Below, piece by piece: positions 8,608-32,000 of a stretch of DNA of 32,000 nucleotides. The notes beneath the pieces are model-generated. The model did not search any database and was not told the DNA's origin. It saw only the letters and a program-made list of their open reading frames with translations. A program made the position numbers and the translations under genes. The first letter of the stretch is position 1. Every line of letters begins with the position of its first letter. The stretch covers positions 2,220,001-2,252,000 of the forward strand of contig NC_017080.1 of the NCBI RefSeq assembly GCF_000284115.1, written 5' to 3'. Source of the DNA: Phycisphaera mikurensis NBRC 102666. GTDB lineage: Bacteria > Planctomycetota > Phycisphaerae > Phycisphaerales > Phycisphaeraceae.

Positions 8608-10593
8608 ATGACCTTCTCCCGACGCCATCAGCCTTATCGCGTCCTTCTCGTCGACGACAACCCCGCGATCCGCGCCGACTTCCGGCGGATCCTCCACCAC
8701 GTGCCGGACGCTCCCGCCGCGCTCGAGGCCCTCGCCGCCAGCTTCTTCGGGGACGAGCCGGCCGCCGCGGACGCCGTTGGGGCCGGGACCCCGCTGGAGA
8801 TCGACGAGGCCGCCGGGGGTGAGGCCGCCGTCGCGTTGGCGGAGGACGCCGTCGCCGCCGGAAGGCCCTACGCGCTCGCCTTCGTCGACATGCGGATGCC
8901 GCCGGGCATCGACGGCCTCGCGACCGTCGAACGGCTCCAGGCGATCGATCCGAACCTCCACACCGTCATCTGCTCGGCTTACTCCGACGCGAGCCACGAA
9001 GACATCGCCCGCCGCTTGGGCGACAGCGACCGGCTGCTCATCCTCCGCAAGCCCTTCGACGCCATCGAGGTCAGCCAGATCGCCTCCGCGCTCACCGCCA
9101 AGTGGGACGCCGCGGCGCAGGTGCGACGCCACCTCGGCGAGCTCGAGAGCCGGGTCCGCGAGCGGACCGACGCTCTCGAGAAGGCGAATCTGCAGCTGCG
9201 GGAGGCGGTGCGGCAACGCACGGAGGCCCAAGAGCAGATGCGGCACGCGGCCCTCCACGACCCGCTCACCGGGTTGCCCAACCGCGCGCTGCTGATGGAG
9301 TCTCTGGCGCGCTTCGCCGACCGCTTCCGGCCGGGGCTGGGACCGACCCACGGCGTGCTCTTCCTCGACCTCGACCGCTTCAAGGTCATCAACGACGGCC
9401 TCGGCCACGCCACCGGCGACCGCGTGCTCATCGGCGTCGCGCAGCGGCTGCGGCGGGTGGCCGAGCGGGTCGAGCGGGAGCCGGGCGTGCGGGAGGCGCT
9501 GGTCGCCCGGCTCGGCGGCGACGAGTTCGTCCTGGCGCTCGGCGGGCTCGACGCGGATGGCGCGCTCCGAGCCGCCGAGCGTGCGGCCCGCCTCGTGTCC
9601 GAAGCGCTCGCCGAGCCACTGATGCTCGGCGGCCGCGAGCTGCACGCCGAGGCCTCCATCGGCTTCGCCGTGGCCGAGGAGGACGGCGACGGCAGCGCGA
9701 GCCTGCTGCGGGACGCCGACACCGCCCTCTACCACGCCAAGGAGGCGGGCCGCGGCCGCTGGGCGGCGTTCGACCGCCCGATGCGCGAAGCCGCCGTGCA
9801 GCGGCTCGAGCTCGGCGCGGACCTCCGCCGCGCCCTCGAGGCCGGGGAGTTCTGGCTCGCCTTCCAGCCCATCGTCGACCTGCGGACCGGCCGGCTCGCC
9901 GCGGCCGAGGCGTTGCTGCGGTGGGCCCACCCCGTCCACGGCCTGGTCGGGCCCAACCGCTTCGTCCCGCTCGCCGAGGAGACCGGGCTGATCGAGCCCA
10001 TCGGCCTCTGGGTGCTCCGCGAGTCCTGCCGCCAGGCCGCCGCGTGGTCGGCCGCCTGCCCCGAGCACGCCAGCCTCGCCGTCACCGTCAACGTGTCGCC
10101 CCGGCAGGTCCTCGCCGGGAACCTGCCCGCGCTGGTCGCGGACGCTTGCCGCGACGCGGGCCTCGCCCCCGATCGCCTCAAGCTGGAGGTGACCGAGGGC
10201 ATGCTGCTCCGCGGCAACGCCCGGGTCAGCGGCGCCTTCGAACGGATCCGAGCCGCCGGAACGCGGGTGCTCATCGACGACTTCGGCACCGGCTACTCGT
10301 CGCTGTCGTACCTGCACCAGATGCCCGTCGACGGCATCAAGCTCGACGCCAGCTTCGTCCGCCAGCTCGGCGAGGACCGCTGCTTCACCAACACCGTGCA
10401 GGCGCTGATCACCCTCGCGATGAACCGGGACCTGGTCGTCGTCGCCGAGGGCATCGAGCGCGTCGACCAGCTGGTGCAGCTGCAGGCCCTCGACTGCCAG
10501 ATGGGGCAGGGCTACCACTTCGGCCGGCCGGTGGCGGCCGGCGAGTTCGGCAAGCTGCTGCTCGGCGGGGCGAACTGGAAGGAGGCCGCTTGA
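8608..10593 (+). CDS. Response regulator with REC-GGDEF-EAL domains (c-di-GMP turnover)
   Basis: REC domain: 'YRVLLVDDNP', 'FVDMRMPPGIDG', 'LRKPF'. A coiled-coil linker follows. GGDEF domain: 'RLGGDEFVLAL'. EAL domain: 'EALLRW', 'DDFGTGYSSLSYL', 'IKLD', 'VAEGIE', 'GQGYHFGRP'. ATG 8608 is preferred; the tracked GTG 8572 is the alternative. Confidence 0.9.
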   Translation: MTFSRRHQPYRVLLVDDNPAIRADFRRILHHVPDAPAALEALAASFFGDEPAAADAVGAGTPLEIDEAAGGEAAVALAEDAVAAGRPYALAFVDMRMPPGIDGLATVERLQAIDPNLHTVICSAYSDASHEDIARRLGDSDRLLILRKPFDAIEVSQIASALTAKWDAAAQVRRHLGELESRVRERTDALEKANLQLREAVRQRTEAQEQMRHAALHDPLTGLPNRALLMESLARFADRFRPGLGPTHGVLFLDLDRFKVINDGLGHATGDRVLIGVAQRLRRVAERVEREPGVREALVARLGGDEFVLALGGLDADGALRAAERAARLVSEALAEPLMLGGRELHAEASIGFAVAEEDGDGSASLLRDADTALYHAKEAGRGRWAAFDRPMREAAVQRLELGADLRRALEAGEFWLAFQPIVDLRTGRLAAAEALLRWAHPVHGLVGPNRFVPLAEETGLIEPIGLWVLRESCRQAAAWSAACPEHASLAVTVNVSPRQVLAGNLPALVADACRDAGLAPDRLKLEVTEGMLLRGNARVSGAFERIRAAGTRVLIDDFGTGYSSLSYLHQMPVDGIKLDASFVRQLGEDRCFTNTVQALITLAMNRDLVVVAEGIERVDQLVQLQALDCQMGQGYHFGRPVAAGEFGKLLLGGANWKEAA

Positions 10594-11894
10594 GCGACTG
10601 CCCCGCCGCTTCGTTGCCCAAGCTCGACCCCGAAGCCGCGCGGCAGCGGGACCAGGTGCTGCGCACCGTGCTCGAGTCGATCCCGCACTGCGTCTTCTGG
10701 AAGGACCGCGACTGCCTCTACCTGGGCAGCAACTCGGGCTTCGCCCGGCTCGCCGGCTTCGACGACGCCGCCGACCTCATCGGCCAGGACGATTACGACC
10801 TGCCCTGGACCCGCACGGAGACCGACTTCTTCCGCAAGTGCGACCTCGACGTCATGGCCCGCGGCGAGGCCATCCTCAACGTCGAAGAGCCGCAGAAGAA
10901 TGCGCTGGGCGAGGAAACCTGGTTGCTGACCAGCAAGGTCCCGCTCCGCGACGAGGCGGGCCGCGTCTTCGGCATCCTGGGGATGTTCGTCGACATCACC
11001 GACCGCAAGCGTGCCGAGCTCGAGCGTGACGAAGCCCAGGCGAAGCTGGTCGTCGCCTCACGCGAAGCCGGCAAGAGCGAGATCGCCACCGGGGTGCTGC
11101 ACAACGTCGGCAACGCCATCAACTCCATCGGCGTCGGCGTCGACCTGCTCCGCGAGAGACTCGGGGCCGGTCCGGTGGCGCTGGCCGAGCGTCTCGCCGC
11201 GTCGCTCCGCCCGCACCGCGCCGACTTCCCCGCCTTCGCCGCCGCCGACCCGCGCGCCGCCGCTCTGCCCGACCTGGTGATCGGCCTCTCCGAAGCGATG
11301 CGGCGCGAGCACGACCGCCTGCGCGACGAGCTGGCGCAGCTCACCGAGCAGGTCGCGCACGTGAAGGACGTCATCAGCAGCCAGCAGGCCTTCGCACGCC
11401 CCCGCACCGCTCGCGAGCCCGCACCCGCCGCCGCCCTGGCCGAGGAGGCCGCGCGGATGGCCACCGCCTGCATCGGTCCCGGCGGCGCGGCGGTCCGCGT
11501 GCGGACGGCCGCCGACGCCCCCGTCGTCACGACCGACCGGAGCCTCGTCCTGCAGGTCCTCGTCAACCTCCTCCACAACGCGCTCCAGGCCGTGCCCGCG
11601 GATCAAGAAGACGGCTCCGTGGAGATCCGCGTCGCGCAGGACGCGACCGCCGGCACCCTCGCCTTCGTGGTCGAGGACAACGGCCGCGGCATCGACGCCC
11701 GAGCGATCGGCCGCCTCTTCGAGCACGGCTACACCACCCGCGCCGACGGCCACGGCTTCGGCCTCCACACCGCCGCGCTCTCGGCCGGCGTCCTCGGCGG
11801 CCGGCTGGAAGCGGCGAGCGACGGCCCCGGCCGGGGCGCTCGCTTCACCCTGACGCTGCCGATGGACCAAGCGGCGGTCCACCCGGCGGCCTGA
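10590..11894 (+). CDS. Cytoplasmic PAS-domain sensor histidine kinase
   Basis: C-terminal part of ORF 9102..11894(+). It has a PAS domain ('LESIPHCVFWKDRDCLYLGSNSGFARLAG...FVDITDRKRAE'), an H-box-like 'ATGVLHNVGNAINS', an N-box 'LVNLLHNALQA', G1 'VEDNGRGI' and G2 'GHGFGLH'. TTG 10590 overlaps the upstream TGA (10591-10593) as TTGA, and GGAGG lies at 10581-10585. I see no TM segment. Confidence 0.8.
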   Translation: MSDCPAASLPKLDPEAARQRDQVLRTVLESIPHCVFWKDRDCLYLGSNSGFARLAGFDDAADLIGQDDYDLPWTRTETDFFRKCDLDVMARGEAILNVEEPQKNALGEETWLLTSKVPLRDEAGRVFGILGMFVDITDRKRAELERDEAQAKLVVASREAGKSEIATGVLHNVGNAINSIGVGVDLLRERLGAGPVALAERLAASLRPHRADFPAFAAADPRAAALPDLVIGLSEAMRREHDRLRDELAQLTEQVAHVKDVISSQQAFARPRTAREPAPAAALAEEAARMATACIGPGGAAVRVRTAADAPVVTTDRSLVLQVLVNLLHNALQAVPADQEDGSVEIRVAQDATAGTLAFVVEDNGRGIDARAIGRLFEHGYTTRADGHGFGLHTAALSAGVLGGRLEAASDGPGRGARFTLTLPMDQAAVHPAA

Positions 11895-20572: not shown

Positions 20573-21325
20573 GCCCGGCCGCGGTCGCTGCGTGGCGACG
20601 CCACGCTGTCCGGGTCGCCATCCAGCTCCTTGGCGCACAAGCCAGACAGAGCGGCGTCGCCGCTCAGCTCTCGGAGCCAGCCTGGCCGCGGTAGCTGCGT
20701 GGCGACGCCACGCTGTCCGGGCCGCCGATCCAGCTCCCTCGCGCACAAGGCAGACAGAGCGGCGTCGCCGCTCAGCTCTCGGAGCCAGCCTGGCCGCGAT
20801 AGCTGCGTGGCGACGCCACGCTGTCCGACTCCCGATCCAGCTCCCTCGCGCACAAGGCAGACAGAGCGGCGTCGCCGCTCAGCTCTCGGAGCCAGCTTGG
20901 CCGCGCTAGCTGCGTGGCGACGCCACGCTGTCCGACTCCCGATCCAGCTCCCTCGCGCACAAGCCAGACAGAGCGGCATCGCCGCTCAGCTCTCGCCGCC
21001 AGCTTGGCCGCGGTCGCTGCGTGGCGACGCCACGCTGTCCGAGCCGCCGATCCAGCTCCCTCGCGCACAAGGCAGACAGAGCGGCGTCGCCGCTCAGCTC
21101 TCGGAGCCAGCCTGGCCGCGCTAGCTGCGTGGCGACGCCACGCTGTCCGAGCCCCGATCCAGCTTCCTCACGCACAAGCAGACAGAGCGGCGTCGCCGCT
21201 CAGCTCTCGGAGCCAGCCTGGCCGCGGTAGCTGCGTGGCGACGCCACGCTGCCCGAGCCGCGATCCAGCTCCTTCGCGCACAAGCAGACAGAGCGGCATC
21301 GCCGCTCAGCTCTCGCCGCCAGCCT
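20573..21325. repeat. Tandem array of 7 copies (plus a partial leading copy) of a ~107-bp unit with two 17-bp palindromes per unit
   Basis: Units start at 20587, 20694, 20802, 20909, 21016, 21124 and 21230, giving periods of 107, 108, 107, 107, 108 and 106 bp. Consensus unit: GCTGCGTGGCGACGCCACGCTGTCCG-[~8 nt variable]-GATCCAGCTCCCTCGCGCACAAGGCAGACAGAGCGGCGTCGCCGCTCAGCTCTCGGAGCCAGCCTGGCCGCGnTA. It contains the perfect palindromes GCGTGGCG-A-CGCCACGC and GAGCGGCG-T-CGCCGCTC. Confidence 0.9.
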
Positions 21326-21492: not shown

Positions 21493-24400
21493 TCAGCGGC
21501 GGCGGCGGCGCGTGAGCAGGCTCAGGCCGACCCCCAGCGCGGCGGCGGTGCCGGGCTCGGGAACCAGGAGGCCCGCATCCACGAAGCGCTGGCGGGCGAG
21601 CGCACCGTCGGCGAAGAGGTCCAGGAACGGGTCGATGTCGCCGCGGTCGAAAACGAAGTCGCGGTTGACGTCGCCGGTAACCAGCGCGTCGATCGAGAAG
21701 GCCCGCTGGTACGCGTCCACGTCGGTGAGCGCCAGCACGGCGGCGTCGGCGTCGTCGAGGTCGATCACGCCGTCGCGGGTGAAGTCGCCGCTGATCTCCC
21801 CGAGGAAGGCGGTGACGAACAGCTCGGCGTCGACGCCGTCGAGCGTGCCGTCGGGGTTCAAGTCCAGCGTCCAGAGGAGGTCGGCGTCGGTGGTGAAGCG
21901 GTTGTCGCGGAGGAACAGCAGGTCGAAGCTGTCGGTGTCGCCGTTGCCGTTGAGGTTCCCGCGGCGGTCGAGCACCTCGTCGTAGGCGGCGGCCGCGTCG
22001 GCGGTGACGGCGGCGGCGTCGAAGAGCGGGCGGATGGCGAGCAAGTCCAGCGTGTCGACGTTCCCGTCGCCGTTGGCGTCGGCGGCGGGGCTGAACAGCC
22101 GATTGCGGCTGTAGAGGAAGGTCTCGAAGTTCGTCGCCGAAGCGGTCAGATCGGCGCGGGTGAGCGAGCCGTCGCCGTCGACGTCGCCGATGCCGGCGCC
22201 GTTCCCGTTGTCGATGCCGATCCCGCTGTAGCGGCGGACGCTGCGGTTGCCGGTGACTTCGAAGGTGACCAGCGTGACCGCGTTGTTGCCGGCGGCCACG
22301 CCGGTAAAGCCGCGGCGGAACAGGTCGCGGTCGATGCGGTTGCCGGCGTTGCCGCCGTCGACCTGCGCCAGCACCTCGGCATCGGTGAGGCCGCTGCCCA
22401 GATTCAGGAAGAAGTGCATCGCGTCGGCGGTGCCATCGGTGCTGCGTCCGTCGAAGTCGATGTCGTGGCCGTCGGCGCTGAAGGGCGTCAGGCCGGCGAG
22501 GGCGGACTCGGGAGCGAGGCGGTCGACGTAGAGGACTTCCTTGAAGTCTTCGAAGACCGCCGGTCCGCCGTCGCCGCCGGTGGCCACGTCGCGGTGGCGG
22601 AAGGCGCGGACGGTGAGGTAGTGCTCGCCCTCGGCCAGGCCGGTGGTGTCGATCGTCTGGGCGAAGCGGCCGCGGCCGTCCGCGTTGAAGAAGCCCGGGT
22701 CGTTCACGTCGGTGAAGTTCTCGAAGCCGTAGGCGGTGCTGCCGGGCGTTGTGAAGTCGACCGCCCCGCTGCCGTTCAGGTCCAGGCCGCCGTCGAGGCG
22801 GAAGGCGGCGAAGTCGCCGTCGGCGTCGCGGTCGCGGACCGCGATCTGCTCGATTTGCTGCGTCAGCGGGTTCAGCCAGCCGCCGGTGTGCGTGACGGCG
22901 TCGGTCTCCAGCGAGATGCCCAGCGTGTCGCCGGTCACCACGCGGAGCGGGGCGAGCCGAGCGCGGGAGCGGTCGCGGTTGCTGCCGGCGTCGGGCACGC
23001 CGTCGCCGTCGGTGTCGACCGTGAGCGGAACGGCATCGGGGCCGATCGTGCGGGTGGAGCCGGCGAGCTGGATGCCGGCGGAGGACTCGGGCTTCGCCAA
23101 GCCGTAGACGAGGTAGCCCTTGTCCTGCCCGTCGTTGCGGAGCGCGCGGACGGTGACCTTCGACGGCCCCGCGAAGAAGTCGTTGTCGACGACGAGCAGC
23201 TCGGCGATGTCCGCCTCGGCCGCCGCGTTGCCGGTGAGCTCGACCAGCGGCGTGCCGAAGGGCAGGTCGACCTCGACGCGGCGCGTGTCGAAGCCGGCAT
23301 CGTTGCGGTTGGACAGCACGACCAGCGCGCTGCCGGCCCGCTCGTAGACGAGCGTCTCCTTCTCCAGGAAGCGCTCGCGGTAGTCGCCGCGGCCATGCGT
23401 TTCGCGGAGCTTCGTGAGCGTGGTGATCCGGTCGCTGCCGGTGCCCAGCGCGTCGCGGCGGCCGTCCTTGGGGAAGTCGCGGCCGTCGCCGTGCTCCTCG
23501 GCGTTGTGGTAGACGACCGCGTTGCCCGGCCGCATCAGCATGTGCGCGTGGGCGACGTTGTTCATCGCCAGGCCGTTCTGCGCGGGCCCGTCATCGTGGC
23601 TCTGCACGAAGAGCAGGCCGTTGCTGCCGTTGATCAGCCCGTCGTCGGCGACGTCCATGCCCGACGCCTGCACGGCGCGCCAGTCGTTGCCGATCGCGTT
23701 GCCCTGCAGGTTGCGGGCCAGGGCGGCCTGGTAGTTGAAGTCCAGCGTGTCGCGGTTCCCGCCGACGCGGCCGGGATCGTTGGGATCGATGTCCTTGCGG
23801 ACGTGGACGCCCAGCAGCGTGCCCGTGTCGGTGAGGAAGGCTTCGCCGAAGCTGAACACGTCGCGGCGGCTGCCGTCCAGGTTCGTCCGCGTGCTCGCCC
23901 GGTACACGGCCTGGTCGAAGTAGTCGAAGACGAAGGGCTCGAAGTGCTTGGTGGCGTCGAGGCGGAAGCCGTCGACGCCGACGTCGGCGACCATCCAGCG
24001 GCTGTTCCGCATGAGCAGGCCCATCGCGTTCTCGGGCACGGCGTCGCCGGCGAGCGGATCGGACGTGTTGAAGGGGTGGATCGCGATGTCCTGCTCACCG
24101 GTGTACGGGTTGAACACGCGGATCGGATCCAGGTCGCGGTCGGCGTAGAAGCGGGCGTTGGCCGGGTCGGGCCGATTCGCGGAGGTACCTGCAGGGATGT
24201 TGCGGGGGTCGTTCGCGTTCACCGGCGTGCGGATGAACCGGAAGTTGGTCGCGTGGTTGATGTCGATCAGGCCCGCGAGGCGGCCGCGGAGGTCGCCGCC
24301 CTCGAAGGCGGAGTGGAAGTCGCCGTCGGTGCCGGGCACGCCGAAGGGGTCGCTGCCGCCATCCGGATCCTGGAGGAAGAAGCCCGGGTACCCGCCGCCG

Positions 24401-24810
24401 GCGATGAAGCCCGGCCGGCTGGCGTCGGAGAAGCCGTTGTGGTTAAGCACCTGGTCGACGTAGATGCTGCCGCCGACGCGGTGGATGCGGTCGGTCAGCG
24501 TGCGGAGGCCGGTCTCCGTGCCGTACAGCGTCGGGGCGTTGGCGCGGCCGAGGTCGAAACGGTCGTACACGTCGTAGCCGACGCTCTGGTTGCCCGAGTC
24601 GGCGCGGCCCACCGGCGGCACCCACGTGCCGCCGTAGCCGGCCAGGAAGAAGTCGCCGAGGCGGTTCTCCTGGTTCTCGTACGTGCTGTCGAACCACTGG
24701 AGGATCGCGGGGGCGGACACGTCCTGCGCGAAGGCGGAGCCGGGGGCCAGCGGGGCCGCGAGGGCGGCGGCGAGGAGGCAGCGGGAGCGGGAGAGGGAGA
24801 GGATGGCCAT
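21493..24810 (-). CDS. Secreted GH13 alpha-amylase with C-terminal dockerin-like Ca-binding repeats and a PEP-CTERM anchor
   Basis: ATG at 24810 gives the signal peptide 'MAILSLSRSRCLLAAALAAPLAPGSAFAQ'. GH13 conserved regions are 'YVDQVLNHNG', 'GFRLDATKHF', 'FSFGEAF' and 'FVQSHD'. The C-terminal third carries repeated 'D.NGDG..D..D' and 'GDVDGDGSLTRADL' dockerin/EF-hand-like motifs. The terminus 'VPEPGTAAALGVGLSLLTRRRRR' is a PEP-CTERM motif. Confidence 0.85.
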   Translation of the reverse strand: MAILSLSRSRCLLAAALAAPLAPGSAFAQDVSAPAILQWFDSTYENQENRLGDFFLAGYGGTWVPPVGRADSGNQSVGYDVYDRFDLGRANAPTLYGTETGLRTLTDRIHRVGGSIYVDQVLNHNGFSDASRPGFIAGGGYPGFFLQDPDGGSDPFGVPGTDGDFHSAFEGGDLRGRLAGLIDINHATNFRFIRTPVNANDPRNIPAGTSANRPDPANARFYADRDLDPIRVFNPYTGEQDIAIHPFNTSDPLAGDAVPENAMGLLMRNSRWMVADVGVDGFRLDATKHFEPFVFDYFDQAVYRASTRTNLDGSRRDVFSFGEAFLTDTGTLLGVHVRKDIDPNDPGRVGGNRDTLDFNYQAALARNLQGNAIGNDWRAVQASGMDVADDGLINGSNGLLFVQSHDDGPAQNGLAMNNVAHAHMLMRPGNAVVYHNAEEHGDGRDFPKDGRRDALGTGSDRITTLTKLRETHGRGDYRERFLEKETLVYERAGSALVVLSNRNDAGFDTRRVEVDLPFGTPLVELTGNAAAEADIAELLVVDNDFFAGPSKVTVRALRNDGQDKGYLVYGLAKPESSAGIQLAGSTRTIGPDAVPLTVDTDGDGVPDAGSNRDRSRARLAPLRVVTGDTLGISLETDAVTHTGGWLNPLTQQIEQIAVRDRDADGDFAAFRLDGGLDLNGSGAVDFTTPGSTAYGFENFTDVNDPGFFNADGRGRFAQTIDTTGLAEGEHYLTVRAFRHRDVATGGDGGPAVFEDFKEVLYVDRLAPESALAGLTPFSADGHDIDFDGRSTDGTADAMHFFLNLGSGLTDAEVLAQVDGGNAGNRIDRDLFRRGFTGVAAGNNAVTLVTFEVTGNRSVRRYSGIGIDNGNGAGIGDVDGDGSLTRADLTASATNFETFLYSRNRLFSPAADANGDGNVDTLDLLAIRPLFDAAAVTADAAAAYDEVLDRRGNLNGNGDTDSFDLLFLRDNRFTTDADLLWTLDLNPDGTLDGVDAELFVTAFLGEISGDFTRDGVIDLDDADAAVLALTDVDAYQRAFSIDALVTGDVNRDFVFDRGDIDPFLDLFADGALARQRFVDAGLLVPEPGTAAALGVGLSLLTRRRRR

Positions 24811-24869
24811 GGCGTGGACGCCGGTTTGGTGCAGGGGAGGCGCAGCGGGAGCCCGCTGCCGCCGAAACA

Positions 24870-24899
24870 GACGGCCCCGGCGTTCCCGCCGGGGCCGTC
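24870..24899 (-). terminator. Intrinsic-terminator-like hairpin after the 297-aa PEP-CTERM gene
   Basis: 13-bp perfect stem: gacggccccggcg / cgccggggccgtc. The loop is ttcc, which reads GGAA on the minus strand and is GNRA-type. On the transcribed minus strand it is followed by TGTTTCGG. It lies 60 nt downstream of the stop at 24960. Confidence 0.55.
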
Positions 24900-24959
24900 G
24901 CTTGTCGCCCTCCTCCACCGTGGGCCGGAGAGCCTTTTGCCAAGCGAGACGCAGGAGGG

Positions 24960-25853
24960 TCAGCCGCGGCGACGACCGGCGATCAGCAGGCCGCCGAGGC
25001 CGAGCAGCGCGAGGCTGGCGGGCTCGGGGACGACCGGAGCCGAAATGGTCACGAACTGTTCACCGGCGAGCGTGTTGAGGTCCACGACCGTCGGATCCCC
25101 GAGGTTGCCCGTGCCCGCAGGCAGCGAGCCGAGGAGCTGATTGGAGGCGAAGGTGCCGTCGGCGCTGGTGTAGATCGCCGCGACCTTGATGTCGCCCTCG
25201 GTGGTGCCAAAGAACGCGGCGAGATCGATCTCCAGCTCGATGCCGGTCGTCGCCGAAGCGGCGAGTGAAGCATCGGCATCGGTGACGCCGAGCACGTTGC
25301 TGTTGTCCCAGCCAACCTGCACGCCGTTCGAGCCGACGTTGCTCAGCGGCAGGTCGCCAGGGCCGCCGCCCGAGACCACGCTGACGGCGGTGTTGTCGAT
25401 CAGGTCGAAGGCATTCACGCCGTAGAAGCCGCTGCCGATCTCGAAGCGGAGGCCGTGATCTGCGGTGAAGCCGCTGTCGAACGTCAGGCCCGCGAGCGCG
25501 TTGACCTCGCCGAAGCCGCCGTCGGCGTTGTCGTTCGCGAGGACGTTCTCGCCGCCCGCGACACCATCGAAGAACAGGAACAGCTTGTTGAAGTTGCCCT
25601 CGACGTTGCCGGTGATGCCCAGCTCAAGATTTCCGGTCGCGGCGTTGTAGTCGCCGAAGATCTGGTTCAGCTCGCCGCCGCCCGCAGAGTCTTGGCCGCC
25701 GCCGGTGGCGTTTCCGAAGCCGGTCGCGTTCTGCTGCGTGGCGAGCAGCGTGAGACCCTCGGACGGGATGTTCTGCCCATCGAGCGTGATGGCCGAGGCG
25801 GAGCCCGCGGCGGCGAGGGAAGCGGCGGCGGAGAGAAGAGTCAGGGTTTTCAT
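24960..25853 (-). CDS. PEP-CTERM sorting-domain protein of unknown function (297 aa)
   Basis: ATG at 25853 is preceded on the minus strand by GGAGG. The signal peptide is 'MKTLTLLSAAASLAAAGSASA'. The body is Gly/Asn/Asp/Thr-rich ('ITLDGQNIPSEG...GNVEGNFNKLFLFFDG'). The C-terminus 'VVPEPASLALLGLGGLLIAGRRRG' is a PEP-CTERM motif. Confidence 0.8.
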   Translation of the reverse strand: MKTLTLLSAAASLAAAGSASAITLDGQNIPSEGLTLLATQQNATGFGNATGGGQDSAGGGELNQIFGDYNAATGNLELGITGNVEGNFNKLFLFFDGVAGGENVLANDNADGGFGEVNALAGLTFDSGFTADHGLRFEIGSGFYGVNAFDLIDNTAVSVVSGGGPGDLPLSNVGSNGVQVGWDNSNVLGVTDADASLAASATTGIELEIDLAAFFGTTEGDIKVAAIYTSADGTFASNQLLGSLPAGTGNLGDPTVVDLNTLAGEQFVTISAPVVPEPASLALLGLGGLLIAGRRRG

Positions 25854-25883
25854 CGGAACCTCCAGGGGAGTGACGTGGCCGGT

Positions 25884-25907
25884 GGGCGGCTTCCACGAAG
25901 CCGCATC
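25884..25907 (-). promoter_or_regulatory. Conserved 24-nt leader hairpin motif, copy 1
   Basis: gggcggcttccacgaagccgcatc (8-bp stem gcggcttc/gaagccgc) lies 31 nt upstream of the ATG at 25853. It is identical to 26623-26646. The homology continues to the upstream stop codon. Confidence 0.5.
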
Positions 25908-25957
25908 ACCACCGGGAAGGCCGCGATCGCCGTCTCCGGCGGCCGCGGGGAGAGGGA

Positions 25958-26593
25958 TCAAGCGCGGCGGCGGCGGAACAGGAGCGCCGCTCCGGCGCCC
26001 AGCAACGCGAGGCTCGCCGGCTCGGGCACGACGCTGAAGGTGGCCGTGTAATTGCTCCCGCCGTTGTCGGCGAGCTGATCGCCGTCCGCGGCGGTGAAGG
26101 CCCTCGCGAAGATCTCGATCTCGTAGTCGCCCTCGACCAGGCCGGCGACCACGTCCGGCGTGCTGGTGATGCCGCCGGGGCCGCCCCAGAGCTGGTCGCC
26201 GCCGCCGGTGAAGGTGTTCCCCGCGGCGTCGGTGAAGGTCGCGTTGGCGCCGAAGTTGTGCGCGATCGCCGTGAAGACGCCCGGCGCGTCGCCCACGCGC
26301 GTGACGCGGTAGTTGGTCTCGACGCCGGTGACGTCGCTGCCACCGTTCTTGAAGGTGAGGCCCTGCGCGTTGGAGATCACCAGCGTGTCGCCGGTGACGT
26401 CGAAGTCGCCGAGATCGAGGCCGTCGAAGTCGCTCAGCGGGCTGGACCCGGGCACCAGGAGGTTGTAGGAGGTCGCGGCCCCGCCGCTGGCGGTGAGCTC
26501 GACGTACGCGCCGAAGATGCCCGCGGCGCCGAAGGCGGAGGTGCTGGAGGCGGCAACGGCCGAGGCTGCCAGGACGGAAAACAGACGGTTCAT
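25958..26593 (-). CDS. PEP-CTERM sorting-domain protein of unknown function (211 aa)
   Basis: ATG at 26593 gives the signal peptide 'MNRLFSVLAASAVAASSTSAFGA'. The body is Gly/Thr/Asp-rich. The C-terminus 'VVPEPASLALLGAGAALLFRRRRA' is a PEP-CTERM motif. Confidence 0.8.
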   Translation of the reverse strand: MNRLFSVLAASAVAASSTSAFGAAGIFGAYVELTASGGAATSYNLLVPGSSPLSDFDGLDLGDFDVTGDTLVISNAQGLTFKNGGSDVTGVETNYRVTRVGDAPGVFTAIAHNFGANATFTDAAGNTFTGGGDQLWGGPGGITSTPDVVAGLVEGDYEIEIFARAFTAADGDQLADNGGSNYTATFSVVPEPASLALLGAGAALLFRRRRA

Positions 26594-26622
26594 GCGGATT
26601 CTCTTCGATCGGACTCGGACAT

Positions 26623-26646
26623 GGGCGGCTTCCACGAAGCCGCATC
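26623..26646 (-). promoter_or_regulatory. Conserved 24-nt leader hairpin motif, copy 2
   Basis: gggcggcttccacgaagccgcatc lies 30 nt upstream of the ATG at 26593 and is identical to 25884-25907. The flanking ~50 nt towards the upstream stop (26698) also align with copy 1. Confidence 0.5.
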
Positions 26647-26697
26647 GCACGCGGGAAAGCAGCGACCGCCGTTCCCGGCGGGCGGTGCGGGGAGAGT

Positions 26698-27642
26698 TCA
26701 GAAGTCCCAGGGGGAGACGCGGACGGAGTCGAAGTCGCTGCGCGGCACGCTGCTGCCGTGGCCGTCGACGAAGGCGACGTTGAGCGCACCGTTGTGGCGG
26801 TCGTTCTCGCTCACGTCGGCGCTCCGGGTCGTCACGTCCTTGGAGGGGAGCCCGTCGGAGAGGTACGAGAACTGAGCCATCGCGTCGAGCGTCCCGCCGA
26901 CGTTGAGGAACAGCGTCGAGAAGTACGTGGAGTCGTTCCACTGCACGGGGTTCCCGCCGGAGTTGGTGAACGGCCGCGTGCCGTAGTCGCCGTAGAGGAG
27001 TGTCTCGCTGGGCGCGGTCACGTTGTCGAGGTTGCCGCCGAGGGTGCCCTTGAGCGTCGGCGTGCCGTTGACCTCGGCGTACGCCGCGATGATCTGCCCG
27101 AAGCCGACCTGACCCCGCGTCCCGTCGGCGGTGGGGATGGCGGCGATGTCCGCGTTGACTCCATAGGAGATGGGGTCGAACTCGTTGCCGTTCGCGTCGG
27201 CCACGGTGTTGATGACGAGACGGTGCCCGGGCTGCTGCTGCTCCATGTCCGGGTCCTTCGGGCACACGAAGATCCGGGACACCTGCGGGTCGGTGTTGAG
27301 GAAGGTCTCCGAGGTGGCGCCGCCGAGGTAGGGAACCAGGGCCGAGGCCCAGTCCTTCACGAAGCGACCCGCGGGATCGGAGCGGAAGTCGTTGTACTGG
27401 GCCCACCGCGTGTTGATCACGCTGTTGTGGTCGGTGATCGTCTGGATGTGCTGCTTGTGGTCCGTGGCGAAGGTGTAGCCCGCCTGCCCGAGCGAACGCA
27501 CGTTCGCGAGGCACTTGAGGTTCTGCGCCGTGTCGCGGGCCGCACCCAGCGCGGGAAGGAGGATTCCGATCAGCAGGGCGATGATCGAGATCACCACCAG
27601 AAGCTCGATGAGCGTGAAGCCGGAGCGGGAGGAGCGGGTCAT
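26698..27642 (-). CDS. Prepilin-type N-terminal cleavage/methylation domain protein of the H-X9-DG (DUF1559-like) class
   Basis: ATG at 27642 gives 'MTRSSRSGFTLIELLVVISIIALLIGILLPAL', a type IV pilin-like leader with the GFTLIE motif. The C-terminal 'HNGALNVAFVDGH' fits the H-X9-DG signature. Confidence 0.85.
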   Translation of the reverse strand: MTRSSRSGFTLIELLVVISIIALLIGILLPALGAARDTAQNLKCLANVRSLGQAGYTFATDHKQHIQTITDHNSVINTRWAQYNDFRSDPAGRFVKDWASALVPYLGGATSETFLNTDPQVSRIFVCPKDPDMEQQQPGHRLVINTVADANGNEFDPISYGVNADIAAIPTADGTRGQVGFGQIIAAYAEVNGTPTLKGTLGGNLDNVTAPSETLLYGDYGTRPFTNSGGNPVQWNDSTYFSTLFLNVGGTLDAMAQFSYLSDGLPSKDVTTRSADVSENDRHNGALNVAFVDGHGSSVPRSDFDSVRVSPWDF

Positions 27643-27655
27643 GAGAAGCCTTGGT

Positions 27656-27674
27656 GGAGGTGAAACGGTTAACC
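27656..27674. promoter_or_regulatory. Candidate LacI-family operator, site A, in the leader of the H-X9-DG gene
   Basis: GGAGGTGAAACGGTTAACC lies 14-32 nt upstream of the ATG at 27642. It matches the reverse complement of site B at 17 of 19 positions, giving the shared motif GGAGGTGAAACRGTTWACC. Confidence 0.4.
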
Positions 27675-27926
27675 CGGAGCGGGTGGATGGAAGAGAATCC
27701 TCCCAAGCGGGAGGAAAAGGCCCGGCAAGCGGGGCATGAGATCGGGAGCAAGGGGGTGACTTCAACCCCCGGTCGGGCGAAATCGGCGAGAACTCGGGAG
27801 GCAGGAGGTGCGATTCCGGAGAAACGTCCGGAACGTCCGCGGATCGGGCCGCAAACGGGGGTCCACGATACACCGTCCGCGGAGGGAGTCAAGCGCAGCA
27901 CCGTGGAAGTTGCGTGCGCGGCGGCG

Positions 27927-27948
27927 GGAGGTAAACTGTTTCACCTCC
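27927..27948. promoter_or_regulatory. Candidate LacI-family operator, site B, upstream of lacI
   Basis: GGAGGTAAACTGTTTCACCTCC is a near-palindrome (GGAGGT-AAAC-T-GTTT-CACCTCC). It lies 42-63 nt upstream of the lacI ATG at 27990. The AAAC/GTTT core resembles LacI/GalR operators, although the centre is odd-spaced. Confidence 0.4.
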
Positions 27949-27989
27949 CGGCGGCTCGATTCTTCCTCCACGCCCCTCCGGCGGCTCCC

Positions 27990-29039
27990 ATGCGAAACGC
28001 TCCAGGCACCACCTCCCGCAAGCGGGTCGGCATCCGCGACATCGCCGCCAGCGCCGGCGTCTCCACGGCCACCGTGTCGATGGTGCTCAACGACAACCCG
28101 AAGATCTCCGACGCGACCCGCGACCGGGTGCGGGCGGAGATCGATCGGTCGGGCTACCAGCCCAACCGGATCGCCCAGTCGCTCTCGGGCAAGTACACGC
28201 GGGTGATCGGCATCCTGCTGCCCGAGCTTCGGCACACGCTGGCGGACCCCTACTTCGGCGAGGTCATCTCCGGCGTGTGCGACCGTGCGGCGCAGCTGGG
28301 CCACAAGGTGACGCTGGAGAGCGCGCGACCGGACTTCATCCGCGAGCGGAAGCACCTGGAGCTGTTCGAACGGCGCTTCGTCGATGGCGTGCTGTGCATC
28401 GGCTTCGACGACCGACACAACTTCCTGGGCGACTTCTCGGCGGCGGGGCACCCGATGCTGGTGGTCAACAACCGCTTCGACGGGCTCGGCGAGGCGACCG
28501 GCGTCGTGCTCTGCGACTACGCCGCGGGGGCGGAGCGGGCGCTCGCGTACCTCGACCAGCTGGGCCACCGGCGCGTCGGGATGGTCTACGGCAGCCGCGA
28601 CGTCCACACCTCGCGCCTGCTCGTCGACGCCTTCGAGAAGCGGCACCACGCCTTCGACCCGTCGCTGCTGGAGGAGGGCCGCTTCGCCGAGGACCCGGGG
28701 CAGGCCGCCGCCGCCGCCCTGCTCGATCGGCACCCGGACCTCACCGCCCTGTTCTGCGGCAACGACAAGATGGCGCTCGGGGCGGTCCGCGAGCTGACCG
28801 ACCGCGGCTTGCGCGTGCCCGAGGACGTCTCGGTGATCGGCTTCGACGACCTGCCCTACGCCCGCTTCATGAACCCCGCACTCTCGACGGTCCACTTGCC
28901 CTTCTACGAGGTGGGCGACCTCGCCTGCGAGCGACTGGTCGAGCGGATCCGCGGCCGCAAGAAGCCGGTCGACGAGACGCTGCCGACCCGCCTGGTCATC
29001 CGCGAATCCACCGGCCGCGCCACCCCCCGGCGCCGCTGA
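27990..29039 (+). CDS. LacI-family transcriptional regulator
   Basis: ATG at 27990 is followed by the HTH 'VGIRDIAASAGVSTATVSMVLNDNPKISDATRDRVRAEIDRSGYQPNRIAQSL'. A periplasmic-binding-protein-like sugar-binding core follows ('VDGVL', 'GHRRVGMV', 'ALFCGNDKMALGA', 'PEDVSVIGFDD'). Confidence 0.9.
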   Translation: MRNAPGTTSRKRVGIRDIAASAGVSTATVSMVLNDNPKISDATRDRVRAEIDRSGYQPNRIAQSLSGKYTRVIGILLPELRHTLADPYFGEVISGVCDRAAQLGHKVTLESARPDFIRERKHLELFERRFVDGVLCIGFDDRHNFLGDFSAAGHPMLVVNNRFDGLGEATGVVLCDYAAGAERALAYLDQLGHRRVGMVYGSRDVHTSRLLVDAFEKRHHAFDPSLLEEGRFAEDPGQAAAAALLDRHPDLTALFCGNDKMALGAVRELTDRGLRVPEDVSVIGFDDLPYARFMNPALSTVHLPFYEVGDLACERLVERIRGRKKPVDETLPTRLVIRESTGRATPRRR

Positions 29040-29072
29040 ATCTTCTTCTCCGTCCACTCTCGGACCCTCCTC

Positions 29073-31889
29073 ATGCGTGTTCTCCCTGTCCTCCTCGCCG
29101 CTGTCTTGCTCGCGGTGCCCTCGGCGGCCGATCCGGTCGTCTTCTCCCTCGACGTCGCCGGCTTCGAGCACAAGCCGCGGACCGTTGCCGTCGCGGGCGA
29201 TTTCAACGCGTGGTCCGCGGATGCGGACCCGATGGCGCCCGACGGCGGCGCGCCCAACCGCTGGTCGGCGACGGTGGACCTGCCGCCGGGCCTGACCCGG
29301 TACAAGTTCGTGATCGACGGCAGCCGCTGGATCGCCGACCCGACGGCGGAGCGGGGCGAGCCCGACGGCCAGGGTGGCACCAACTCGGTCGTGCTCGTCG
29401 GCGGCGAGGCGGCGCTCGCGGCGAGCACGCACCGCTTCGAGCTGGACGCCCGCGGCTGGGACGACAAGCCCTTGACCGTGAACCTCGCCGGCGCGTTCAA
29501 CGGCTGGAGCAAGACCCACACGCCGATGCAGGAGGTGGCTCCGGGTGTCTTCGAGGTGAGCGTGGCGCTGCCGGATGGGATCCACCCGTACAAGTTCGTC
29601 GTCGACGGCGACCGCTGGGTGAACGACGAGAAGCACAGCGACGAGAGCCTGGAGGAGAGCGACGGCAACGGCGGCGTGAACTCCGCCGTGCTCATCGGCT
29701 TCGACGCCCGGGCGCTGCCCGCGCCCAAGCCGGACCACCTCAGCGTCGAGGCGATGAGCCACCGGTCCGGGGACTTCCTGCACCTCAGCGTCGCCTCACC
29801 GGGGCTCGTGCTGCTGGGCGTGGACACGCAGGCGGGCGACGCCGAGCGGGTGCGCGTCCACACGCGGACCGGCGGCGGCGACTGGTCGACGCACGAGCTC
29901 GCGAAGCAGCAGACCAAGTTGGGGCTCACGACCTTCGGCGGGCTCGTGCGGCTGGGCGGACCCGCCGACGCGGGCGACGCGCGTGAGGACCTGGAGCTGA
30001 GCTACGTCTTCGAGGCCGTCGACGGCGACGCCCGGGCGTTCCTCGGCGCCGGCGGCGTGGCGGGCGGGCTCGACGCGGCGGAGCCGTTCGCCACCGAGCT
30101 GACGCCGGGCTTCCAGACGCCCGAGTGGGCGAAGGACGCCGTCTGGTACCAGGTCTTCGTCGAGCGCTTCCGCAACGGCAACCCCGCCAACGACCCCGGC
30201 GCCTACCCCTACGAGAACCTGCTGCCGTGGACCAGCGACTGGTGGGAGACGCACACCGCCTTCGGCGAGGCGGCCGGCGAGGAGAACTTCTACGAGGGCG
30301 CCGGCAACGTGTGGGCCCGCCGCTACGGCGGCGACATCCAGGGCCTGCAGGAGGCGCTGCCGTACCTGAAGGAGCTCGGCATCACCGCCCTGTACCTCAA
30401 CCCGATCTTCGAGGCCGACTCGATGCACAAGTACGACACGGCGGACTTCCGCCACGTCGACGACAACTTCGGGATCCTCGCAGAGAAGCGCTTCGAGCAG
30501 GTGGCCGGCGAGACCGACGACCCGGCGACGTGGAAGATCACGCCGTCGGATCGGGTGTTCCTCGACTTCCTGGAGGTCGCCCACGCCCAGGGCTTCAAGG
30601 TCGTCATCGACGGCGTGTTCAACCACACCGGCACCGCGCACCCCTTCTTCCAGGACGTGCTCATGCACGGCCCCGAGTCGGAGTACGCCGACTGGTTCGA
30701 GGTCACCGACTGGGGCGACCCCGCGAACTGGGGCAAGCCGGAGATGGCCGGCGAGCCCGGCGGCATCCAGTACAACGCCTGGGACGGGCCCAGCGGCGCG
30801 CTGCCGGTGTTCAAGAACGACCCGCAGACCGGCTTGGCGCCGGGGCCGCGCGAGCACATCTTCGCGATCACGAAGCGGTGGCTGGATCCCGACGGCGACG
30901 GCGACCCCAGCGACGGCGTAGACGGCTGGCGGCTCGACGTGCCCGGCGACATCGCCCACCCCTTCTGGATCGACTGGCGGAAGGTCGTGAAGGATGTCAA
31001 CCCCGACGCCTACATCGTCGGCGAGATCTGGCCCTGGGCCCACCCCTGGCTCCAGGGCGATCAATTCGACGCGGTCATGAACTACCAGTTCGCGATGCCC
31101 GCGACCGACTTCTTCGCCGACGTGGAGAACCCGATGCCGCCGAGCGTCTTCGCCGAGCGGATGCTCCGCGTGGCGTACGGCTACCCCATGCAGGTCGCGC
31201 TCGCGCAGCAGAACCTCTACGGCAGCCACGACACCGACCGCTTGGCGTCGATGTTCGTGAACACGGACCGTCCCTACGACGGGATGAACCGGATCCAGGA
31301 CTCGGACCCGAGCTACGACAAGCGGAAGCCCGACGCCGAGGAGTGGGCGCGGATGCGGCAGGCGGTCGTCTTCCAGCACGCCTTCCTCGGGGCGCCGATG
31401 ACCTACTACGGCGACGAGGCCGGGATGTGGGGCCCGGACGACCCGAGCAACCGGGCGCCGATGGTGTGGCCGGACGCGGGCACCTTCGAGCAGGAAGGCG
31501 TGGGCTTCGACCCGGAGATGTACGCCTTCTTCCGCCGCGTCATCGCGATCCGCCAGCACCTGCCGGCGCTGCAGCGGGGCGCCTTCAACGTGGTGCTCGC
31601 CGACGACGACGCCGGCGTGTTCGCCTTCGAGCGGGTGCTCGGAGACGAGCGGGTCGTGGTGGTCCACAACCGCAGCGGGCGGGCCCGCGACGTGGAGGTG
31701 CCGGTGGACGCCGAGCGGGTGCTCGACCTGCTGGACCCGGCGACGGCTTCGGTGCCCGCGCCGGATCTCGCGGACCCGCAGCGGCCGGAGCTGGAGGTCC
31801 GCGGCGACGGCCCGGTGCTGCGGGCGAGCGGCGGCGAAGCCACCGTGCGGCTGCCCGCCTGGGGCAGCGCGATCCTCGTCGCTCCATGA
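29073..31889 (+). CDS. Secreted GH13 alpha-glucan hydrolase (neopullulanase/cyclomaltodextrinase-like) with two N-terminal CBM48/AMPK-type glycogen-binding modules
   Basis: The signal peptide is 'MRVLPVLLAAVLLAVPSAA'. There are two modules, 'VAVAGDFNAWS...YKFVIDGSRWIADP' and 'VNLAGAFNGWS...YKFVVDGDRWVNDE'. The catalytic core carries 'WYQVFVERFRNGNPANDP', 'YGGDIQG', 'LYLNPIF', 'VVIDGVFNHTG', 'GWRLDVPGD', 'IVGEIW' and 'GSHDTDR'. It starts 33 bp after lacI. Confidence 0.9.
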   Translation: MRVLPVLLAAVLLAVPSAADPVVFSLDVAGFEHKPRTVAVAGDFNAWSADADPMAPDGGAPNRWSATVDLPPGLTRYKFVIDGSRWIADPTAERGEPDGQGGTNSVVLVGGEAALAASTHRFELDARGWDDKPLTVNLAGAFNGWSKTHTPMQEVAPGVFEVSVALPDGIHPYKFVVDGDRWVNDEKHSDESLEESDGNGGVNSAVLIGFDARALPAPKPDHLSVEAMSHRSGDFLHLSVASPGLVLLGVDTQAGDAERVRVHTRTGGGDWSTHELAKQQTKLGLTTFGGLVRLGGPADAGDAREDLELSYVFEAVDGDARAFLGAGGVAGGLDAAEPFATELTPGFQTPEWAKDAVWYQVFVERFRNGNPANDPGAYPYENLLPWTSDWWETHTAFGEAAGEENFYEGAGNVWARRYGGDIQGLQEALPYLKELGITALYLNPIFEADSMHKYDTADFRHVDDNFGILAEKRFEQVAGETDDPATWKITPSDRVFLDFLEVAHAQGFKVVIDGVFNHTGTAHPFFQDVLMHGPESEYADWFEVTDWGDPANWGKPEMAGEPGGIQYNAWDGPSGALPVFKNDPQTGLAPGPREHIFAITKRWLDPDGDGDPSDGVDGWRLDVPGDIAHPFWIDWRKVVKDVNPDAYIVGEIWPWAHPWLQGDQFDAVMNYQFAMPATDFFADVENPMPPSVFAERMLRVAYGYPMQVALAQQNLYGSHDTDRLASMFVNTDRPYDGMNRIQDSDPSYDKRKPDAEEWARMRQAVVFQHAFLGAPMTYYGDEAGMWGPDDPSNRAPMVWPDAGTFEQEGVGFDPEMYAFFRRVIAIRQHLPALQRGAFNVVLADDDAGVFAFERVLGDERVVVVHNRSGRARDVEVPVDAERVLDLLDPATASVPAPDLADPQRPELEVRGDGPVLRASGGEATVRLPAWGSAILVAP

Positions 31890-31938: not shown

Positions 31939-32000
31939 ATGCGAATGCTCCCTCTGCTCATCCTCGCCGCCGCCGCCGCGACGCTCCCCGCTTGCGCGAC
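31939..32000 (+). CDS. Start of a probable lipoprotein, 3'-truncated by the window edge
   Basis: ATG at 31939 gives 'MRMLPLLILAAAAATLPACA', a signal peptide with a lipobox-like LPAC. Only 20 codons are visible. Confidence 0.4.
   Translation, partial: MRMLPLLILAAAAATLPACA

Follow-up and report, generated by a model that had tools for sequence, protein, structure and literature searches.

In a window of 32,000 nucleotides of Phycisphaera mikurensis NBRC 102666 (contig NC_017080.1, positions 2,220,001 to 2,252,000; positions below count from the first letter of this whole stretch), we describe a locus that is likely to serve the utilisation of alpha-glucan, whether starch, glycogen or floridean starch, by means of two divergent operons under one LacI-family repressor and through the mechanism proposed below. 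Together with two enzymes of glycoside hydrolase family 13 (GH13), here named A and F, the locus encodes two proteins with PEP-CTERM anchors, B and C, and one pilin-like protein, D. Because the families of all three travel with amylase genes in distant bacteria, B, C and D probably form a new kind of cell-surface apparatus for starch capture or secretion.

With a G+C content of about 72%, the window yields plain open reading frame lists that are crowded with shadow frames, and the real genes were picked by codon-position G+C. A preliminary description of this DNA, made from its letters, had proposed the same genes in the same order, and codon-position G+C and domain matches placed all of them at or near the positions given there. 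Two divergent gene sets lie around a 347-bp control region, the gap between D and lacI. The minus strand carries, in order, the gene for the prepilin-type protein D (26698-27642, 314 aa), C (25958-26593, 211 aa), which has a signal peptide, a predicted Ig-like beta-sandwich and a PEP-CTERM anchor, B (24960-25853, 297 aa), with a signal peptide, a predicted beta-sandwich and again a PEP-CTERM anchor, and A (21493-24810, 1105 aa), an exported GH13 alpha-amylase with dockerin-like repeats and a PEP-CTERM anchor. On the plus strand follow lacI (27990-29039, 349 aa), F (29073-31889, 938 aa), an exported GH13 enzyme of neopullulanase type with two modules of carbohydrate-binding module (CBM) family 48, and a lipoprotein gene. 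As the minus-strand genes from D to A are not separated by any terminator-like site, and as F starts 33 nt after lacI, the genes likely form two operons, D-C-B-A and lacI-F.

The B, C and D families are linked to GH13 genes

A layout with LacI on one side and pilin, B and amylase genes on the other, and with a CBM48-GH13 gene beside lacI, was found in at least six other genera belonging to three families of the order, and also in many loci of metagenome-assembled genomes (MAGs). The order is amylase-B-pilin opposite LacI-pullulanase-F in locus L004, F-LacI opposite pilin-B'-B-amylase in L005, LacI opposite pilin-B'-B-amylase in L009 and LacI opposite pilin-B-amylase in L011, while L007 and L014 show the same layout without the pilin. 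In the syntenic loci, identity to the P. mikurensis proteins is 43-57% for LacI, 37-45% for A, 36-40% for D (E 1e-42 to 1e-46) and 49-54% for F, whose orthologues adjoin lacI. The absence of the gene adjacency from every relative would have refuted the preliminary description; the adjacency is clearly held in synteny across genera and families.

Sequence comparison also shows that each of the families of B, C and D is linked to GH13 genes independently of the other two. The B family has more than 184 homologues in a large protein database, and 80 loci from species-representative genomes spread over Phycisphaerae, Planctomycetia, Verrucomicrobiota, Armatimonadota and a few other groups. On the family tree, 43 of the 97 rows, distributed over both deep halves, have a GH13 gene no more than 10 kb from the B relative, and in family f3 B adjoins either an ATP-binding cassette (ABC) transporter of the MalK-type/substrate-binding protein kind or a CBM48-GH13 gene with a dockerin. 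Of the 29 loci with a GH13 context, 14 have a pilin-like gene at most 5 kb from B, against 6 of the 51 others, counts that are not phylogenetically independent; indeed, the co-occurrence counts for the B, C and D families are all uncorrected for shared ancestry. The C family has 29 other members in the large protein database, and its members directly abut a GH13 gene in four of seven outside contexts (Rubellicoccus, a Verrucomicrobia MAG, Prosthecobacter and one further contig), three of them in Verrucomicrobiota and two including a LacI- or AraC-PBP regulator, with giants of about 2800 residues among the products of the abutting GH13 genes; the three remaining contexts are without GH13, one of them beside an exosortase. 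Among the homologues of the D head domain (36-40% identity), three of four lie in loci that run from a regulator and a divergent pilin gene to GH13. The comparative check suggested in the preliminary description thus came out in its favour, as each of the three families co-localises with GH13, partly in other phyla.

A chance meeting of large paralogue families with a starch locus has to be weighed here, given that both families are abundant in this organism. We scanned the 3.88-Mb genome of P. mikurensis with a simple gene caller based on third-codon-position G+C (GC3) and with motif patterns, so that every genome count is approximate, and found about 56 pilin-like and about 70 PEP-CTERM genes. 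A PEP-CTERM gene is the immediate neighbour of 20 of the 56 pilin-like genes (2.7 expected), and a pilin-like gene lies at most three genes away from 11 of the 12 LacI genes (1.3 expected); in both cases none of 5000 permutations reached the observed number. Neither B, C nor D has a close paralogue in the genome (the best one of D reaches 88 bits at 31% identity, so that D is more like its syntenic orthologues), and the synteny of the orthologous loci extends across families of the order and beyond. Since permutations, synteny and the lack of close paralogues all speak against it, chance adjacency was rejected as a highly improbable explanation. The lack of close paralogues also suggests that each locus has its own private accessory proteins.

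The genome-wide counts put the locus into a larger frame. At least ten loci of the genome combine a regulator, pilin-like, PEP-CTERM and carbohydrate-active enzyme (CAZyme) genes, and the pilin and surface proteins of each locus are divergent and private to it. Among the contents of the other LacI loci are GH10 xylanase-type enzymes, GH2, GH78, BNR propellers, a sulfatase, a heparinase-like lyase and a porphyranase-domain protein that ends in a PEP-CTERM tail, and one PEP-CTERM partner has a mannanase galactose-binding-like domain. The starch locus is the alpha-glucan member of this genome-wide architecture and not an alpha-glucan-specific module. The earlier idea of a module for alpha-glucan accordingly stands as far as the conserved GH13 linkage is concerned, but the architecture is not peculiar to this substrate, other LacI loci holding other CAZymes.

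LacI and its putative operators

LacI is a full-length member of its family, with matches to PF00356 (helix-turn-helix domain, 59.1 bits, cut-off 27) and PF13377 (Peripla_BP_3, 119 bits). The control region contains two copies of one 17-mer with the consensus GGTrAAAC-N-GTTTyACC. Operator O1 (GGTGAAACGGTTAACCC, 27659-27675) lies 17-33 nt before the D start codon, and operator O2 (AGGTAAACTGTTTCACC, 27929-27945), a palindrome with an AAAC-N-GTTT core, lies 45 nt upstream of the lacI start; the O2 core, AAACNGTTT, has a single occurrence in the whole genome. In order to avoid circularity, a weight matrix was built from eight sites taken solely from the orthologous control regions of relatives. 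With this matrix O2 ranks first in the 3.88-Mb genome (25.4 bits) and O1 sixth genome-wide (15.2 bits). At least 12 orthologous loci have a site equivalent to O2 in front of lacI, and in further loci from which none of its sites were taken the matrix likewise detects a strong site (21-29 bits) upstream of lacI. On the pilin side, loci L029, L030, L032 and L042 carry a weaker variant, GGTTAACCGTTTMAMC, which is the reverse complement of O1, and in L053 and L058 an additional operator-like site stands directly before the amylase gene.

By this comparison O1 and O2 are a conserved phylogenetic footprint, to which LacI is predicted to bind, presumably in response to an effector. The proposal that operators of one motif stand before both lacI and the pilin gene, made originally from the two sites of this window, is supported by the ranks obtained with relatives' sites alone and by the recurrence of the motif in orthologous loci.

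In the search for a wider LacI regulon, one further site above 16 bits was found, at C1:1523081; it belongs to a locus of amino-sugar type (GHL10, SIS, NAGPA) that has its own GntR-PBP regulator, and was treated as unrelated. This site is the third-best operator-like site of the genome, and the same GntR-PBP regulator, GHL10, SIS and NAGPA genes lie upstream of C1:1527212-1532414, outside the window, where PEP-CTERM and pilin-like genes directly precede an ABC sugar importer consisting of a binding protein and two permeases. In the leader of D, a terminator-like hairpin with a T-rich tail (27698-27715, minus strand) is flanked by O1 on one side and by the sole sigma-70-like promoter match (27892-27865, minus strand) on the other; going by a consensus match, this hairpin could be an attenuator.

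The pilin-like protein D

D begins with a prepilin-type helix, GFTLIELLVV, which matches PF07963 (N_methyl) with 31.6 bits (cut-off 21.2) and TIGR02532 with 27.4 bits (cut-off 16.3). Beyond this helix the protein consists of a private head domain of about 270 aa with a C-terminal H-x9-DG motif, and the match to solved pilins is confined to the N-terminal helix. Several homologues of the head domain are annotated as PF07596, and D is for this reason likely to be a distant relative of that family. D resembles the DUF1559 (PF07596, SBP_bac_10)/H-X9-DG (TIGR04294) families of the PVC bacteria (Planctomycetota, Verrucomicrobiota, Lentisphaerota) in its prepilin methylation motif, in the literal H-x9-DG close to the C-terminus and in the large numbers of paralogues per genome. 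Unlike the members of these families, it remains under the TIGR04294 cut-off and without a PF07596 match, and it is single-copy, specific to its locus and tied to GH13. Its earlier designation as an H-X9-DG prepilin-like protein consequently holds for the prepilin motif and for the literal H-x9-DG, but not at the level of the TIGR04294 score.

In two loci of the D homologues, L113 and L114, the gene after the pilin carries an X25_BaPul_like match or a faint CBM_1st_SusF match, indicating that recognisable starch-binding domains fill the position that B and C occupy in P. mikurensis.

Predicted folds of B and C

The only domain match of B in Pfam and NCBIfam is PEP-CTERM (TIGR02595, 21.9 bits against a cut-off of 16), and PEP-CTERM is also the sole confident domain of C (TIGR02595, 25.4 bits, same cut-off), in agreement with the earlier statement that neither protein has a recognisable catalytic or binding domain. 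Profile searches of PDB sequences were empty for both. Using family alignments, AlphaFold gave for B a confident model (predicted local distance difference test, pLDDT, 88.8; predicted template modelling score, pTM, 0.86) with a beta-sandwich of about 240 residues. The Foldseek matches of best shape are DOMON domains and CBM9, all with a template modelling (TM) score of at most 0.38, among them the CBM9 structure 1i82 with a probability of 0.35 and a TM of 0.38. The model of C (pLDDT 89.3) is an Ig-like sandwich of the RhoGDI/E-set type (TM 0.37-0.52, Foldseek against PDB), and glycogen-binding CBM21 is among its weaker matches (TM about 0.37). The preliminary description had suggested looking for CBM-like folds in the two proteins; both models are confident beta-sandwiches, but their likeness to CBMs is limited to a faint resemblance to CBM9/DOMON or CBM21. 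The predicted folds of both proteins would suit binding modules, and binding of glucan is at most a prediction.

C also has a weak match to the flocculation protein PepA (NF033554, E=1e-5, under the cut-off), and this raises the question whether B, C and D might be general envelope or adhesion proteins, serving algal attachment, flocculation or biofilm, which are co-regulated with starch use or inserted near it and have no direct role in glucan capture or degradation. The classical association of PEP-CTERM proteins is with exopolysaccharide and floc formation, one clade of B homologues sits in the dcw cluster beside ftsI, and the three C contexts without GH13, including the one next to an exosortase, would also fit such a role. 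Three unrelated families, however, each track GH13 across phyla, the ftsI context is a single nested and derived clade, and an operator lies directly in the leader of the D-C-B-A operon, so that we consider a purely adhesive role improbable.

The B homologues of the ftsI clade come from Phycisphaerales MAGs (loci L031, L033, L035, L052 and L061) and lie at about 10000-10840 in each locus, in the order mraW, a LysM protein, a small ftsL-like gene, ftsI, the B homologue and valS; those of L031, L033 and L035 are 56-61% identical to B. Around the C family, three Verrucomicrobiota loci encode giant proteins of about 2800 residues with weak Alpha-amylase matches only (L015, 1-7670; L016, 4106-9983; L109, 1-7897), whose neighbours are a PEP-CTERM gene of the C family and another small PEP-CTERM protein.

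The enzymes A and F

Both GH13 enzymes keep intact catalytic motifs, as far as these can be read from the protein sequences. A matches PF00128 (Alpha-amylase) with 25.6 bits (cut-off 22), in its N-terminal part only, and contains GH13 regions I-IV (DQVLNH, GFRLDATKH, FGEA and FVQSHDD) with the catalytic residues D285, E323 and D407 in place. The closest solved structures are Bacillus-type and Halothermothrix alpha-amylases (E=6e-14), again for the N-terminal part only, and A is only a distant relative of the solved alpha-amylases. Its PEP-CTERM anchor scores 21.4 bits with TIGR02595 (cut-off 16). The dockerin-like repeats noticed earlier are visible as four D-x-[DN]-x-[DN]-G calcium loops by pattern and as about three dockerin-like Ca-loop modules, but Dockerin_1 (PF00404) reaches 17.2 bits and thus remains below its cut-off of 22.9. 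No cohesin partner for these repeats was identified.

F matches PF00128 with 160 bits, PF16561 (AMPK1_CBM) with 76.1 bits in two stretches and PF02922 (CBM_48) with 42.7 bits in two stretches. It resembles neopullulanases, maltogenic amylases and cyclomaltodextrinases of the PDB (1sma, 1bvz, 1j0h; E 1e-76 to 3e-81), and this full-length likeness to solved members places it in the GH13 neopullulanase/maltogenic amylase group. Predicted signals for export or anchoring are found on every structural product of the locus.

Proposed mechanism and comparison with known systems

We propose that, without an inducer of maltodextrin type, LacI would sit on both operators and both operons would be repressed; the centres of O1 and O2 are 270 bp apart, and looping would be possible. 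With inducer, the minus-strand operon would yield the endo-amylase A, the non-catalytic proteins B and C, and the private pilin-like D. A, B and C would be exported by Sec and then retained at the cell surface by one of the three exosortases of the genome. There, B and C may hold the polymer or organise the amylase while A cuts it, in parallel to SusE/SusF and SusG. D would be cleaved by the single prepilin peptidase and would join a machine like a type II secretion system (T2SS) or a type IV pilus that is encoded elsewhere, either carrying proteins of the locus across the outer membrane or bringing bound oligosaccharide inwards. The exported F, with its two CBM48 modules, would trim imported dextrins as SusA does.

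Several observations weigh against this interpretation. Foldseek gave no match of B to PDB at E<1e-3 (best E=4e-3), no known CBM family is matched significantly by B or C, either in sequence or in fold, and the resemblance of C to solved folds is generically Ig-like. A full-length homologue of C is absent from 40 relatives of the same order, in which PEP-CTERM tails only were matched. One nested clade of 17 B homologues stands beside ftsI, in a cell-division cluster, with no GH13 near, and 46 of the 107 extracted B homologues (38 of the 97 tree rows) have no tested marker at a distance of up to 10 kb, some of their contigs being short. The pilin gene is missing in L007 and L014, which are otherwise orthologous. 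D carries the literal motif H-NGALNVAFV-DG, and its TIGR04294 score of 16.2 bits is below the curated cut-off of 19; it has no DUF1559/PF07596 match in Pfam and is not among the 33 PF07596 matches of the genome. O1, with its 15.2 bits, is a weak site. Finally, the P. mikurensis locus contains no uptake gene: the preliminary description had set the locus apart from others by the absence of ABC, MalE or SusCD uptake components, which is correct for this locus itself, but ABC genes accompany the orthologous locus in some relatives.

The starch utilisation system (Sus) of Bacteroides thetaiotaomicron is the prototype of the polysaccharide utilisation loci of Bacteroidota, and the present locus resembles it in several respects. 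Going by the predicted roles of the parts, both have a sugar-responsive regulator, a surface-tethered GH13 endo-amylase (SusG, comparable to A), non-catalytic surface proteins beside the amylase (SusE and SusF, comparable by position to B and C, and to the X25/SusF-CBM-like proteins of L113 and L114), an exported GH13 of neopullulanase type that acts on imported dextrins (SusA, comparable to F), and many parallel loci per genome with private accessory proteins. In contrast to Sus, no TonB-receptor or SusD domain is present in any of the seven products of the locus, so that the resemblance is functional only; anchoring is by PEP-CTERM/exosortase here and by lipidation in Sus, the regulator is of LacI type and not SusR, a pilin-like protein is a conserved member, and the sequences of B and C show no relation to those of SusE and SusF.

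A second comparison is offered by the pullulanase secreton of Klebsiella oxytoca, in which pulA is divergent from pulC-O under the control of MalT. As in our locus, a surface alpha-glucan enzyme is coupled there to pilin-like genes across a divergent control region, which in Klebsiella is controlled by maltodextrin. The Klebsiella locus encodes the whole machine, with secretin, ATPase, platform and five small pseudopilins, whereas the P. mikurensis locus has the single orphan pilin-like D, with its private head of about 270 aa and its H-x9-DG, and the machinery lies elsewhere in the genome. In an alternative explanation, the module is dedicated to the amylase as an aid to secretion and anchoring and not as a glycan binder: D would then be a substrate-specific pseudopilin that hands the exoproteins of the locus to a shared T2SS, and B and C would act as scaffolds or chaperones for the dockerin-bearing, PEP-CTERM-anchored amylase. 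Besides the Klebsiella precedent of an alpha-glucan enzyme coupled with pseudopilin genes under maltose control, the dockerin-like repeats of A and the Dockerin_1 domain on some B orthologues (P0039, P0065) fit this explanation, as do the lack of a recognisable CBM in B and C, the 11 T2SS-E-type ATPases of the genome and the private pilin of each locus. We nevertheless regard it as rather unlikely: the starch-binding-type domains (X25, SusF-CBM-like) in the slot after the pilin in L113 and L114 favour binding over scaffolding, Foldseek against PDB gave no cohesin-like fold for B or C, and the B homologues of f3 stand beside ABC importer genes with no surface amylase.

Protein sorting by the PEP-CTERM/exosortase system was reportedly described by Haft and colleagues in 2006. 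A, B and C all end, like known cargo of this system, with VPEP, a hydrophobic stretch and a cluster of Arg. The cargo differs from the classical one, being here a glycoside hydrolase and accessory proteins in catabolic operons. A literature search, in which the coverage of papers was incomplete, returned no account of carbohydrate loci in which PEP-CTERM and pilin-like genes are standard components.

Machinery and wider significance

Neither an exosortase, nor a prepilin peptidase, nor a secretion ATPase is encoded in the window, and the machinery had been expected elsewhere. The genome indeed holds, all outside the window, three exosortases (PF09721, all over the cut-off), one prepilin peptidase (PF01478, C1:2179839) and 11 T2SS-E-type ATPases (PF00437). 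A T2SS cluster beside D was not found, as the window has no PF00437 or PF01478 match; secretin was not searched.

A planctomycete genome encodes tens to hundreds of DUF1559/H-X9-DG pilin-like proteins, which, like most PEP-CTERM proteins, are uncharacterised in function. According to a 2025 review (PMC12078418, citing Boedeker et al. 2017), planctomycetes have been suggested to take up polysaccharides by means of 'fishing-rod' pili, and pilin-based capture of polysaccharide in planctomycetes is still treated there as a hypothesis without assigned genes (PMC12078418). The prepilin-type paralogues of the DUF1559/H-X9-DG families are gene candidates for these pili. The locus described here ties one pilin-like protein and two PEP-CTERM families to one simple substrate, alpha-glucan, and it contributes a defined substrate, an operator footprint and, for each accessory family, a linkage to GH13 that crosses phyla. 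A defined pair of predicted repressor and operator comes with it, and its host is cultured and was isolated from a starch-storing red alga.

A broader, tentative reading, which we hold to be possible although the balance is somewhat against it, is that PVC bacteria run a polysaccharide system other than Sus. In such a system each locus would have its repressor, a private DUF1559/H-X9-DG pilin and exosortase-anchored glycan-binding proteins, which would jointly capture polymer for surface or periplasmic enzymes, and the pilin would replace SusC/SusD as the element of specificity in uptake or secretion. If this were true, families of the B and C type would be glycan binders not yet described as CBMs, and the starch locus would offer a tractable test case, its substrate being cheap and defined and its host available in culture. 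B and C may in any case found new families of carbohydrate-binding or enzyme-scaffolding proteins.

Other features of the locus

The leaders of B and C, each about 104 nt long (25854-25957 and 26594-26697), are paralogous. Both contain the same 25-nt hairpin motif on the minus strand about 30 nt before the start codon, in the leader of B at 25883-25907, with an 8-bp stem (GCGGCUUC/GAAGCCGC), and in the leader of C at 26622-26646, as an identical second copy. No third copy was found in the genome, allowing up to four mismatches, or in any fetched locus of a relative. The hairpin may be an element of RNA processing or stability within the operon, or the trace of a duplication of the leader.

The lipoprotein gene after F (31939-32949, plus strand) runs past the end of the window at 32000 and encodes a protein of 336 aa with the lipobox LPAC and a DUF4380 match of 42 bits. 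As this lipoprotein was not found in the orthologous loci of relatives, it may lie outside the conserved module. On the other side, just past the stop of the amylase gene A, a tandem array of palindromic repeats occupies positions 20573-21325, and the genes of the left flank are unrelated to the locus, encoding a GGDEF-EAL protein, a histidine kinase, an aldo-keto reductase, a transketolase and a TPP enzyme.

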